NCBI RefSeq assembly: GCF_003334355.1
Contig: NZ_QOWP01000010.1
Length of the DNA: 64,000 nucleotides
Direction: 5' to 3' (one strand)
Source: Escherichia coli
GTDB lineage: Bacteria > Pseudomonadota > Gammaproteobacteria > Enterobacterales > Enterobacteriaceae
Shown piece after piece: positions 19,857-59,500 of the stretch; positions within the stretch are counted from its first letter, which is position 1; every line of letters begins with the position of its first letter. Under the pieces are notes generated by a model. The model did not search any database and was not told the DNA's origin. It worked only from the letters and a program-made list of their open reading frames with translations. A program made the position numbers and the translations under genes.

Positions 19857-20165
19857 TTAGCGTGTAGTGGACGTGGTGGTTGAGGTGTTATGAGAACCGC
19901 CATCGCCACTGTCATTTGCTGCAACAACTGCCAACGTCGCCACACCAACAGCCGTTGCCACACCGACAACTGTCGCCGTGCCGACAGCGCCAGCAGCCAC
20001 GCCACCAGTGGTAGTAGCAGCAGTCGTGGTTGCGCCGGTAGTGGTCGTTGTGGTGCCAGTAGTACCCGTCGTTGCATCGGTCCCGTTTGTTGCTTCAGGG
20101 GCAGCAAACGCAGCTGGCGTCGTCAACATGAAGGCCATAAGGATTGCAGAAAGCTTGTGTTTCAT
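19857..20165 (-). CDS. gfcA: Thr-rich small secreted/membrane protein GfcA (YmcD), about 101 aa
   Basis: ORF 19857..20183; MKHKLSAILMAFMLTTPAAFA signal then threonine-rich low-complexity region; start at 20165. Confidence 0.85.
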   Translation of the reverse strand: MKHKLSAILMAFMLTTPAAFAAPEATNGTDATTGTTGTTTTTTGATTTAATTTGGVAAGAVGTATVVGVATAVGVATLAVVAANDSGDGGSHNTSTTTSTTR

Positions 20166-50782: not shown

Positions 50783-50912
50783 AGAACACATGGCTCGTTG
50801 TAAACAATCCCATCTTTGTACCTGGAATAATCGTTTATATCCCCTGGCATTACCTCTCTTTGTTTACATTTCAACATCATTTTATAAACATTCCGCTTGT
50901 ATTTTTCTTTAC

Positions 50913-54290: not shown

Positions 54291-54427
54291 AGGCGGATAA
54301 GGCATTTGTGCGCAGATGCCTGATGCGACGCTTGCGCGTCTTATCATGCCTACAATCAGTGCGGGTTTGGTAGGCTGGATAAGGCGTTCACGCCGCATCC
54401 GGCGATCGTGCACTGATGCCTGATGCA
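54291..54427. repeat. BIME cluster (REP palindromes) between efeB and phoH
   Basis: aggcggataaggcatttgtgcgcagatgcctgatgcgacgcttgcgcgtcttatcatgcctac; gtaggctggataaggcgttcacgccgcatccggc. Confidence 0.5.
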
Positions 54428-54460
54428 AATCCTGCTGAAAGCACACAGCTTTTTTCATCA

Positions 54461-54479
54461 CTGTCATCACTCTGTCATC
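54461..54479 (+). promoter_or_regulatory. Pho box (PhoB binding site) of the phoH promoter
   Basis: CTGTCAT-CACT-CTGTCAT: two 7-bp direct repeats with 4-bp spacer, about 150 bp upstream of phoH ATG. Confidence 0.6.
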
Positions 54480-54627
54480 TTTCCAGTAGAAACTAATGTC
54501 ACTGAAATGGTGTTTTATAGTTAAATATAAGTAAATATATTGTTGCAATAAATGCGAGATCTGTTGTACTTATTAAGTAGCAGCGGAAGTTCCCGGCAGT
54601 GATAGTCAGTCACTATGGAGATCGCGG

Positions 54628-55692
54628 ATGGTAACGTCCTGTACTGGACATGTTTTAGATAATCAACGCGCCACCACTCGCGGAGTTTTCTCCTCCGGTA
54701 GTCATCTCGTCACTTTGCATTTTCAACCTCATCCTTTCTTTTCATGTGTTACCGACGCCGTAAACGGTGCGCGTAGCCGTTTTTCGGCATTTTATCCAAA
54801 AGCAAACTATGGCTTACAAGGAAGCCAACCCTCTGATGTTCGTGCGCATAATCGCGCTGCCAACGGCGCGTGTGATGAATACAAACAACTCAAGGTGCTC
54901 TCCATGGGAAGACAAAAAGCAGTGATCAAAGCTCGTCGCGAGGCAAAACGTGTGCTGAGACGGGATTCGCGCAGCCATAAGCAGCGTGAAGAAGAATCGG
55001 TCACCTCGCTTGTGCAGATGGGCGGCGTAGAAGCCATTGGTATGGCCCGCGACAGTCGCGATACTTCGCCCATCCTCGCGCGAAATGAAGCGCAATTGCA
55101 CTATCTGAAGGCTATTGAGAGTAAGCAGCTGATATTCGCCACGGGCGAAGCCGGGTGCGGAAAAACCTGGATCAGCGCAGCAAAAGCGGCAGAGGCCCTG
55201 ATACATAAGGATGTCGACAGGATTATCGTCACCCGTCCAGTTCTGCAAGCCGATGAAGATCTTGGCTTCTTACCTGGAGATATCGCAGAAAAGTTTGCTC
55301 CCTATTTTCGCCCGGTCTACGACGTGCTGGTCCGGCGCTTAGGGGCTTCCTTTATGCAGTACTGCCTGCGACCGGAAATAGGGAAGGTGGAAATTGCGCC
55401 GTTCGCCTATATGCGTGGACGTACCTTTGAAAATGCAGTCGTCATTCTTGACGAGGCGCAGAATGTGACTGCCGCGCAAATGAAAATGTTTTTAACCCGC
55501 CTCGGGGAGAACGTGACGGTTATCGTCAACGGTGATATCACGCAATGCGATTTGCCTCGCGGCGTGTGCTCCGGATTAAGTGACGCGCTGGAACGTTTCG
55601 AAGAAGATGAAATGGTTGGGATCGTCCGGTTCGGTAAAGAGGACTGCGTACGTTCGGCACTTTGCCAACGTACGCTGCATGCCTACAGTTAA
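54628..55692 (+). CDS. phoH: phosphate-starvation-inducible ATPase PhoH (Walker A GEAGCGKT), 354 aa
   Basis: Full ORF MVTSCTGHVLDNQRATTRGVFSSGSHLVTLHF... Confidence 0.9.
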   Translation: MVTSCTGHVLDNQRATTRGVFSSGSHLVTLHFQPHPFFSCVTDAVNGARSRFSAFYPKANYGLQGSQPSDVRAHNRAANGACDEYKQLKVLSMGRQKAVIKARREAKRVLRRDSRSHKQREEESVTSLVQMGGVEAIGMARDSRDTSPILARNEAQLHYLKAIESKQLIFATGEAGCGKTWISAAKAAEALIHKDVDRIIVTRPVLQADEDLGFLPGDIAEKFAPYFRPVYDVLVRRLGASFMQYCLRPEIGKVEIAPFAYMRGRTFENAVVILDEAQNVTAAQMKMFLTRLGENVTVIVNGDITQCDLPRGVCSGLSDALERFEEDEMVGIVRFGKEDCVRSALCQRTLHAYS

Positions 55693-55710
55693 GTGTGTTA
55701 TCGGTGCAGA

Positions 55711-55735
55711 GCCCGGGCGAACCGGGCTTTGTTTT
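55711..55735 (+). terminator. rho-independent terminator of phoH
   Basis: gcccggg-cgaa-cccgggc hairpin followed by tttgtttt. Confidence 0.6.
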
Positions 55736-55741
55736 GGGTGT

Positions 55742-56155
55742 TTATGCCCGGACTAGCGCTTTTTCTGAAACAACCATTTTTATTTGCCCCTGGCTGGTGA
55801 AGTGTACGCTCATCCTGTGGCTTTTTTGTAGTTGCTGATAGAGCTCATCAGGTATTGCTAAGCTCTCTGCATATTCTTGCGGCGTATATTGGTAGGCTGC
55901 ATGATGCTGCTGTTTTTGAAAACGCAGCTTATTGTACAGCGCCCAGACAATTAACACGACGGCATTCGCCACTGCCAGCAAAAAATAGAACTGAAGTCGG
56001 CTTCTGGCCTCGCTTTGCCAGTAATAACCCGTCAGCAGATCCATGGCGAATAAGAATATGAACAACGCAAATAATGTCCACAAGATGGTTGTGGCAACAT
56101 AATCAACCAGTAAACGTACTGGTGATTGTCGGGTCGTAATAATTAAATTGTTCAT
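55742..56155 (-). CDS. pgaD: PGA synthase accessory membrane protein PgaD, 137 aa
   Basis: Full [50 protein letters not shown]. Confidence 0.92.
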
Positions 56156-56156
56156 A

Positions 56157-57481
56157 TTAACCTCTCAGAATCCCGCGATCGGGACTTACCCAACGGGTGC
56201 GTTGCTTTTTAGGCATCAACATGACTCGTGTAAATGATACCAATGTCGTTGCCAGGCTCAGCATCCAGAAAATAACCGGGAACCAAATAATCCAGAAAAG
56301 CGATGAAGTCAGATTATGCTCATAGCGATTCTCGATCATCAGGCTGACAATAAATTGCAGTAAACATAACGTACACAATAATATTCCGGCAGTATGTGTC
56401 GCAGCGATATGTGTCAATTCAATATTTAACGGTACACCGGCAAGTTGGACTGCGTAAATAATGAAACCGACCAGGCAGGTGAAGGCCCATATTGTCGTCA
56501 GGCAGTATTCAAAAAACAGCGGCCACATTCGAAAGTTTTCTTTGCGCCACAACCTTGTCATATTTTTGAGGAATACTTCTGCACCGCCCTGAGCCCAGCG
56601 CAGGCGCTGTTTCCACAGCCCTTTTAACGTTTCAGGCATTAATATCCAGCACAGTGCCCGTGGCTCGTAAAAATCGTCCACTGATTCAACTGCAGCTTCC
56701 AGCTAATATCAATATCTTCGGTGATCATATCGTCACTCCAGTAACCCACTTCTGCCAGGGCGCTGCGACGAAATGCGGCAATAACACCGGAAACGGTAAA
56801 TACGTTTCCATAGATACGCTGGGTTCGCTTGATCAAACCAATAATTGAGGAATACTCGCCAACCTGAATTTTACCCACCAGGGTAGAACGTGTTCGAATA
56901 CGAGGATTACCGGTTACGGCACCCACACGCGGGTTGTACAACATCGGTTCCACAATATATGCCGCCGCATCGCGGTCTAATAACGCATCGCCATCAATGC
57001 ACACCAGATATTCACTTTTCGCCGCGGCAGCTCCGGTTTTAAGCGCAATGGCTTTCCCCTGGTTTTGCGCCAGATGAATGACCCGCAAATGGGGAATTTG
57101 TGCAGCCATGCGATCCAGGATGGCACGGGTTTTATCTGTTGAACCGTCATTTACGGCAATAACTTCAATGTTCTCATAACGCTGTGCTAAAGCGGCGTGT
57201 ATGGTTTCCTCAACGTTTTTCTCCTCATTAAAACAGGGAATGATAATGGAGATAGACGGATTATCTTTCAACTGGGGAGCTGGTGCGTTTTCTCCCCACG
57301 GCCAGTGGCGTTCACGATAGACCCAGAAATAGACGCCGCCAACAATCCACATAATGGACATAAAAAACGGCCAGAAGAAAACGAACCTCATCATCAGTTC
57401 ACCAGAGTGAAAGTACGCTACGCATAGGGGTATGCATAACACCAGACATAATATAAAAAACGATACGATGCGATTAATCAT
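56157..57481 (-). pseudogene. pgaC: poly-beta-1,6-N-acetylglucosamine synthase PgaC (GT2), reading frame split by a 1-nt loss in a homopolymer (plus-strand A5 at 56669-56673): frameshifted allele or sequencing error
   Basis: Track gives two ORFs in different frames: 56639..57481 (N-terminal 280 aa ...[13 protein letters not shown] then out of frame) and 56157..56681 (C-terminal, ..[32 protein letters not shown]); the intact protein reads ...[13 protein letters not shown]... Confidence 0.8.
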
Positions 57482-59492
57482 TTTTCGGATACCAGGCTGT
57501 TGAAAACTCAGGACGAATAAGGTCTATTTCAGGTTGGTTATGCAGAAAATTGTCGGGATAATAACCATAGTTTTTCACTCCATTCAGTTGTAATAGGCTC
57601 ATCCAGTGAGCGAGTTGTTGCGAAGAAATAGCCTGATGCTGACCATTTTTCTGCCAGTTTTGTGCCTGTAATTCTAAAATAGATTTGTCTTTAGCCTGAG
57701 GGATGTTTTTAATTTGATTGGTCAATTGTATTAACCATTGGTCAGCCGATTTTTCTGCGACACCTTCCAGATAAGGCATAGCCATAATAGCGGTCCAGTC
57801 ATAGCTTTTTAGGAAATCAGCATAATTCTGTGCAAACCAGGCTTCACTTTCAGGTTGTATTACCGGAAGTGCAAAAATATTTCGTGCAGTTTTAATATGT
57901 GGACCGCGAATGGCTTTTACGCGCGCACTAAGTTCTAAAGTGAAGTCAGTTAACGCACGACTTTTAAAGCGGGCCCACTGTTTAAATTGCTCCGGGTTTT
58001 GTCGAATTTCGCTCAGACTCCCGCTAAAGCCTGCTTGCTGATAAGCCGTGATAGCCGGTGCACTGGCATCTTCATAATCTGAAAGCAAAGCATCATCGTG
58101 GAACAATATGCCATCAAAAGCAGCATGTCCGGCAAGATCTTCATATAACATGCCAACTTGTGCTCTGACTCTGTCATCGAAAGGAGAGAGACGGTGATAT
58201 TGTTCAGGATGAATTTGTGCTTTTTTCTCCCCTGTTGGTAAGTATTTTACTCGCGTTAATGTGGGATCTAAATCCCAGCTTAATACCGGCATCCACGCAT
58301 AGATGTTTACACCTGAGCGGGTACGTAATTGCCAGGCAACCCGACTAAAAATATCTGCTTTCATTGGTAGCAAACGATTTGGAAACCAGACCTCTTTGAC
58401 CAGCCCATCACCATCGGGATCAGCAAATGCCTGCAAATACACGGTTGATATTTGCATATCTTTCACCCGCTGAATTAGCACATCAATATTGCGATCCATT
58501 TGCTGGAGGTTTTCGTCATAAACGTAATCAAGATCGATATGCATTATCCGTTGTGGTGATTTTTCCTGTACGGTAATAATTTGCTGGGCAAACTCTTTTA
58601 ATGAGGGATTATTGGCGATTAATACCCGCGGAATGGAATCCAATTGCGACGCATTTGCCAAACCTGATTCAAGGGTGAAGAACATGTCATAACCGAGTTT
58701 TTTTAATTCCTCTATCGCTATGCCATTCGCTTCGCCATAAGGCCAAACAAAAACGTGTGGATTTACCTCAACCTTTGTACGCAGGTATTCCGTCATTTTT
58801 ACAGCATCCAGACGAATTCTTTCCCGGTATTCTGCTGCGGTTTCATACCGTGCGTGGTCAGTAAAATATGCACGATTTACATATACAGGCAATAAGCTGC
58901 CGGTGGCATTAGCCTGAATACCGTAGTGAGAATTCCATGTATGAGAAGCGAGCTCAACGAGCCGGGAACGCGCAACTTCTCGCACTTGTTGCCACGTGGC
59001 AAAATATTCTCGATCGACCAACTCATCGCCAAATTTTACTTGTTTATCCGCTGGCGTATCGACCCAACTGCCGACGGGGGCCCATACAGCAGGCCACTGG
59101 AAGGCCTGAAGAATTGGGAAGACGCGGGTATAAAAACTCTGGTAGCCGTCATCAAAAGTCAGCACTACAGCTTTTTCCGGTAGCGGTTTTCCTCCTCGAT
59201 GTGCTTCACGAATTTGAGCAATACTGACCGGTTGATAACCGTTCTCGCGCAGCCAGGCAAATTGTTCACGCAGTGCTGATGTCCGCACTGACATAAAACG
59301 CTGGTCGGCAGTTTCGTCTTCAACGTTATGCCATGAAATCGCTACAAAACCATTATGCGGCCACGGTTGCTCGGCGAGTAAAGATTCGCGATCCTGTGGC
59401 GGTATAAATGATGTTCTTGACTGGCTAATGCACGCGGTGAGCATAATTATACTCACCAGCATCAGGAGATATTTATTTCCATTACGTAACAT
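57474..59492 (-). CDS. pgaB: PGA N-deacetylase lipoprotein PgaB, 672 aa
   Basis: Full [40 protein letters not shown]... Confidence 0.93.
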
Positions 59493-59500
59493 ATTTATCC

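Follow-up and report, generated by a model that had tools for sequence, protein, structure and literature searches.

PgaC is a GT2 polymerase whose activity depends on PgaD (reviewed in PMC8461298, citing Wang 2004, Itoh 2008 and Steiner 2013), and the same review records that PgaD is rapidly degraded when PgaC or c-di-GMP is missing. A pgaC pseudogene with a 283-aa product occurs in Shigella flexneri (for example, SVH73298.1 and KFZ99471.1), and scattered E. coli genomes carry pgaC lesions caused by the insertion sequences IS1 and IS5 (NZ_CP119441 and NZ_CP138397). The rph frameshift of K-12, a single-base change, has been cited in PMC3571907. Our searches of the searchable literature retrieved nothing specific on a pgaC frameshift, on a pga pseudogene in Shigella, or on the PGA or biofilm phenotype of the ECOR collection, and the pgaC allele described here was likewise not found there.

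The DNA that we analysed is a stretch of 64 kb (hereafter, the window), an E. coli chromosomal segment in which annotated matches in complete genomes give the gene order hya-app-gfc-tor-rut-put-efe-phoH-pgaDCBA-dgcT. The initial annotation had described pgaC, which lies on the minus strand, as two ORFs of 280 and 174 aa in different frames, and the ORF list agrees with this throughout (Table 1). Orthology and operon position are confirmed, with pgaB located upstream and pgaD downstream. The plus-strand run of five A's (T5 on the coding strand) corresponds to six T's (T6) at the same position in K-12 MG1655 and in the two complete genomes nearest to the window, PSS-12 (NZ_AP027697) and OW1E2 (NZ_CP067245). 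Inside the gene, this run and one SNP are the sole differences between the window and K-12, and DNA identity to the annotated K-12 orthologue is 99.9%. When one T is added back in silico, the result is a 441-aa ORF encoding K-12 PgaC (WP_000610451.1) except for the substitution A429T, and the sequence ...TIFYEPRAL... is read across the junction. The intact protein reads TIFYEPRAL at this point as well, so that the repair suggested at the outset does restore PgaC, and the objection that the intact protein might read differently there falls away. Chance is not at issue in this observation, since the window was compared directly with an annotated orthologue. The ATG of a shorter, 160-aa C-terminal ORF overlaps the stop codon of the 280-aa ORF (TAATG), and it is this 160-aa version that gene callers report as the C-terminal ORF on contigs assembled from reads.

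Table 1. Positions of the pgaC lesion, its ORFs and the neighbouring pga genes in the window
Feature	Position	Strand	Remarks
Shortened homopolymer	56669..56673	-	Coding T5 / plus-strand A5, wild type T6; frame lost after codon F271
Whole pgaC pseudogene	56157..57481	-	441-aa poly-beta-1,6-GlcNAc synthase if one T is restored
N-terminal ORF, 280 aa	56639..57481	-	PgaC 1-271 plus 9 out-of-frame residues (TSHGHCAGY)
C-terminal ORF, 174 aa, GTG start	56157..56681	-	Holds QRLRW and the hydrophobic segments at ~323-421; putative product
Alternative C-terminal ORF, 160 aa (WT residues 282-441)	56157..56639	-	ATG start
SNP, PgaC A429T	56198	-	Differs from K-12, PSS-12 and OW1E2
pgaD, intact, 137 aa, common allele	55742..56155	-	
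pgaB, intact, 672 aa	57474..59492	-	
pgaA, intact, 807 aa	59501..61924	-	

Whether the missing base is a genuine allele or a homopolymer error had been left as an alternative in the initial annotation, and the data favour the genuine allele: separate assemblies and a contig assembled from reads all carry T5, and none carries T6. We compared every base of the 64-kb window with PSS-12 and OW1E2. The window differs from PSS-12 by 23 substitutions and two single-base indels over 64 kb; the indel at position 33764 is private to PSS-12, OW1E2 agreeing with the window there, and the pgaC run is the window's only private indel. Because this is one private indel among 281 homopolymer runs of at least 5 bases, or 75 runs of at least 6 bases, the assembly is not error-prone. 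In addition, the exact products of the broken gene were used as queries in public sequence collections. The 160-aa ORF with A429T was found on one Logan contig (ERR4578542_246; 9534 bp, assembled from raw reads), which is 100% identical to window positions 54374-63907, T5 included, and on which dgcT, pgaA, pgaB, pgaD and phoH are all intact. This contig was recovered from 7 samples, the read sets of which may include the reads behind the deposited assemblies, and the evidence here is that of assemblies and contigs rather than of read pile-ups. Two NCBI draft assemblies were retrieved with the window's DgcT allele as query, GCA_002190165.1 (LYBG01000730.1; 143,290 bp) and GCA_003334355.1 (QOWP01000010.1; 143,448 bp, the window's own contig). 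Over a length of about 11.4 kb, each of them carries T5 and is 100% identical to the window, and neither has a called protein between pgaD and pgaB. QOWP01000010.1 stops exactly at window position 64000, so that the window is probably the final 64 kb of this contig. LYBG00000000 is strain ECOR04 of the ECOR reference collection (PMC13293308), and, judged by this sequence identity, the window is ECOR-04 or an identical clone. We consider it highly probable that the ECOR-04 clone has truly lost one base of the pgaC run (T6 to T5), a deletion of the slippage type, and that this loss inactivates PgaC.

The truncated PgaC product is also encoded on the Logan contigs L006 and L022-L027 (from ERR4564663/4, ERR4562439/42, ERR4087472, ERR2235309 and SRR16936275), the haplotype of which (56198C, 59312C and an extra T at 62195) is not that of the window. 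These contigs contain 2-26 extra one-base deletions per 2-8 kb, nearly all of them in T/A runs of 5-7 bases and a few in runs of 4, which break up pgaA, pgaB and dgcT and leave spurious split genes throughout pgaABCD and dgcT. Here T5 is evidently a homopolymer under-call. Clearly noisy read sets from another strain background can thus make exactly the same call, with an identical 280/240-aa product, and homopolymer-undercalling chemistries do miscall the site; together with the absence of T5 from all 5426 complete RefSeq E. coli genomes, this is the case for a sequencing or assembly error in a strain that truly has T6 and an intact pgaC. For the window we nevertheless judge such an error very unlikely. 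The artefact is recognisable because other homopolymer errors accompany it, and the window and its sister assemblies are without them, there being no further private homopolymer indel in the window's 64 kb. T5 is reproduced in LYBG01, in QOWP01 and in the contig shared by 7 read sets, so that separately deposited assemblies and this contig match the window base for base and have intact neighbouring genes. Moreover, a systematic platform error at the run would recur elsewhere, and T5 occurs in 0 of the ~4330 complete genomes that carry pgaC. Frameshift products in such noisy public assemblies are often artefacts. The run may serve as a calibration case, T5 being genuine in one clone and arising repeatedly as an artefact in error-prone sets, and the two can be separated by counting nearby homopolymer indels.

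The T5 allele is rare and essentially specific to the ECOR-04 clone. A search for 100% matches across the T5 site returned none among the about 4330 complete RefSeq E. coli genomes that carry pgaC, and a 38-nt query that could be seeded only by a T5 genome had no match in the 5426 complete RefSeq E. coli genomes. Including ECOR-04, T5 is seen in four haplotypes. The other three are represented by clean contigs, namely L020 (ERR2019164), which equals K-12 except for one SNP, L021, which is 50 substitutions from the window and comes from 2 samples, and L019, which is 91 substitutions from the window. As they were picked out of a very large data set by their T5 product, these contigs could be rare consensus errors; among the T5 cases, only that of ECOR-04 is replicated enough to be called real with confidence. 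Lengthening of the same run is also seen. Shigella flexneri has T7, its 283-aa PgaC products, which end in QWTIFLRATGAVLDINA directly before the stop codon, being present on 479 + 128 contigs, and T7 was confirmed at the DNA level in four loci (L031-L034). The same loci have a pgaB in fragments and a short pgaD (100-107 aa), with IS1 in some records, and decay seems to affect the entire pga operon of the S. flexneri lineage. Just one of the 5426 complete E. coli genomes reads T7 in its assembly, that of strain ST648 (NZ_CP008697.1, locus 1540-1550; L035), in which pgaC is annotated as "frameshifted".

The initial annotation had also suggested that the allele might be slippage-prone. This stands in the generic sense that applies to any T6 run, but not for the site as a special one. 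A mutational hotspot at the pgaC run, as suggested by T5 in four haplotypes and by T7 in S. flexneri and ST648, was ruled out with a control run, a second mid-gene T6 run at position 966 of the pgaC CDS, for which the predicted ±1 frameshift products in the same K-12-type background were sought. In a collection of 15 billion proteins, these products were found on 37 (T5) and 52 (T7) contigs for the control run, compared to 26 and 8, respectively, for the run affected in ECOR-04. Because the control run has as many ±1 frameshift products or more, there is no site-specific excess. The existence of -1 and +1 alleles at the same run, in the haplotypes and lineages just named, might also point to a contingency tract at which reversible slippage switches PGA on and off (phase variation). 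Such a tract is extremely unlikely, however, because length variants are so infrequent, with 0 (T5) and 1 (T7) among 5426 complete genomes. In addition, the tract has only 6 bases and shows no excess over the comparable one in the same gene, the single-sample "clean" T5 contigs could be rare consensus errors from a very large data set, and the T7 of S. flexneri lies in an operon with the pgaB, pgaD and IS1 lesions described above, which indicates decay rather than switching.

The consequences of the deletion for the protein were assessed from the restored PgaC, for which the motif positions were taken from the sequence and from Pfam. The restored protein has a GT2 domain, matching PF00535 (residues 78-245, E=3e-39), PF13641 (75-299) and PF13632 (159-363), and among proteins of known structure it matches GT2 enzymes and BcsA chains. 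A PDB sequence search gave no structure of PgaC or PgaCD, the matches being distant GT2, BcsA and hyaluronan synthase chains. The frameshift falls inside the Pfam GT2 envelopes, in the region that aligns with the solved GT2 enzymes. Two N-terminal hydrophobic segments, DGS-112, DGD-163 and TED-254 are kept in the 280-aa ORF, from which QRLRW (292-296) and all C-terminal hydrophobic segments (~323-421) are removed. No single polypeptide contains the full set of catalytic motifs (D, DxD, TED and QxxRW), since QRLRW is in the other frame, downstream of T5, and the uninterrupted ORF of ~441 aa that would include the C-terminal membrane segments is replaced by ORFs of 280 aa and 174 aa.

We propose that replication slippage deleted one T from the run in the coding strand of pgaC (T6 to T5) in the ECOR-04 clone, whereupon the frame would shift after Phe271 and translation would stop nine codons later. 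The truncated product would still have its N-terminal membrane anchor and the greater part of the GT2 catalytic domain, including DxD and TED, and would be without the QxxRW acceptor-binding motif and all C-terminal hydrophobic segments. The lost segments would, by analogy with related processive synthases, form the membrane part that works with PgaD. No PGA/PNAG would then be expected although pgaA, pgaB and pgaD are intact, and PgaD would be expected to be unstable without its partner PgaC. Because QRLRW and all C-terminal hydrophobic segments are removed, complete loss of PGA synthesis, probably with an unstable PgaD, is the best-supported outcome, and the earlier expectation that the strain should be PGA-negative despite intact pgaA, pgaB and pgaD is, as a prediction from the sequence, well founded.

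For PgaC to remain functional, ribosomes would have to slip by -1 on the T-run, or re-initiation at TAATG would have to yield an enzyme in two pieces, and neither seems at all plausible. A -1 slip of tRNA-Phe on the run would give ...IFYEPRAL..., which is exactly the wild-type sequence, but the X XXY YYZ heptamer is absent in the zero frame (ACG ATT TTT ACG) and only the A-site codon could re-pair after the slip. The ATG that overlaps the stop of the 280-aa ORF makes expression of the C-terminal fragment possible in principle, but a two-piece enzyme would miss residues 272-281, which lie between TED and QxxRW within the conserved GT2 core. T6, moreover, is the state in about 4330 genomes. We know of no homologue that is naturally split at the site of PgaC residues 272-281, and of no stimulatory frameshifting element at the pgaC T-run. 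Taken as one proposition, a low-frequency reversible switch at codons 270-272 or residual PgaC from a -1 ribosomal slip or TAATG re-initiation has, in our estimate, only the slightest chance of being correct; if it were, the run would turn PGA output in E. coli and Shigella on and off or reduce it, and PGA would not simply be lost. Inactivation of pgaC by the deletion is the reading that we retain.

A real T5 might still have arisen while the ECOR-04 stock was stored or passaged in the laboratory and not have been present in the original human isolate of the 1980s. The nearest natural relatives, PSS-12 and OW1E2, have T6, ECOR stocks differ between laboratories (PMC13293308), and the clean T5 contig from ERR2019164, which is K-12 bar one SNP, suggests that the change may arise in laboratory lineages too. 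We nevertheless think a laboratory origin unlikely, although it is the alternative to which we give the most weight. Every ECOR-04-type data set that we found has T5, and no contig was found that combines ECOR-04-specific markers with T6, the T6 contig L045 overlapping only the non-specific marker 56198T.

The second change in the gene, A429T (codon 429), converts a C-terminal QRARW to QRTRW. Two of the 10 changes on the ECOR-04 branch in 64 kb fall in pgaC (P about 0.017, calculated post hoc), and relaxed constraint after inactivation was considered as the cause. This idea was rejected: A429T is a standing polymorphism, because at least 12 further contigs of several backgrounds carry it alongside an intact T6 pgaC. 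The same substitution is found in several unrelated haplotypes whose pgaC is intact (L036-L045), which indicates that A429T is either recurrent or spread by recombination. The window's PgaD allele was also tried as a lineage marker and proved uninformative, being the common allele, from which PSS-12 deviates.

Several other differences were noted in the window. At intergenic position 62195, some 271 nt ahead of the pgaA start codon (61924), K-12, OW1E2 and most other haplotypes have a T (AAATCAG[T]AAATTCC) that both the window and PSS-12 lack. The pgaA leader is presumably about 234 nt long, in which case the indel would lie close to the -35 region of the pga promoter; a simple promoter scan around 62195 returned no minus-strand consensus promoter. 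The efeU gene is intact in the window, PSS-12 and OW1E2. K-12 efeU is a known pseudogene, which differs by two single-base indels (window positions 50822 and 51097) and is annotated as "frameshifted". The yccE gene (33679-34926) is interrupted, a 293-aa ORF ending at 34560 and being followed by a separate 116-aa ORF; OW1E2 and PSS-12 carry a matching "internal stop" pseudogene annotation, this state is common to the lineage, and PSS-12 additionally has A6 rather than A7 at 33764. An IS3-family fragment adjoins dgcT at the end of the window (63879-64000), where the contigs of the draft assemblies also end. Insertions that are absent from the window are an IS3 at about 20010 in PSS-12 and an IS421 in gfcC at about 18580 in OW1E2, and the window and OW1E2 differ in the copy number of a CAG triplet at 20021-20023. 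For phoH (54628-55692), the longest ORF has 354 aa compared to 262 aa for RefSeq PhoH, and gene callers give 262, 307, 325 or 354 aa; this spread is a matter of start-codon ambiguity and not of a lesion.

ECOR-04 (ECOR4) is in wide circulation as a reference strain and is often chosen as a host for isolating phages and for work on defence systems. Those who use it in studies of biofilms, surface polysaccharides, phage adsorption or anti-PNAG antibodies should expect, on our prediction, no PGA despite the presence of a pga operon, and typing by the presence or absence of pga would score the strain as positive.

In comparison with known systems, the ECOR-04 allele is an ordinary strain-specific pseudogenisation of a well-characterised gene. 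The run resembles phase-variable homopolymer contingency loci in that it lies in a gene for a surface structure and has both +1 and -1 variants in nature, but it does not qualify as one, being short (6), with very rare variants and no excess over the control tract. Like rph and efeU of K-12, pgaC of ECOR-04 is a non-essential gene with a single-base frameshift in a widely distributed reference strain, although the K-12 alleles, unlike that of ECOR-04, are documented and their phenotypes characterised. The pgaC lesions of other E. coli (the IS1 and IS5 insertions in NZ_CP119441 and NZ_CP138397, and T7 in ST648, NZ_CP008697) are similarly sporadic and strain-specific, with the flanking pga genes kept, but differ from ECOR-04 in mechanism or in the sign of the indel, no complete genome having T5. 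A close counterpart is the pgaC pseudogene of S. flexneri, in which the same T-run is affected, truncation likewise follows F271, and QxxRW and the C-terminal membrane segments are lost. In S. flexneri, however, the change is +1 (T7) and not -1 (T5), it is fixed across the lineage, and it is accompanied by further operon lesions, whereas the pga operon of ECOR-04 is otherwise intact.
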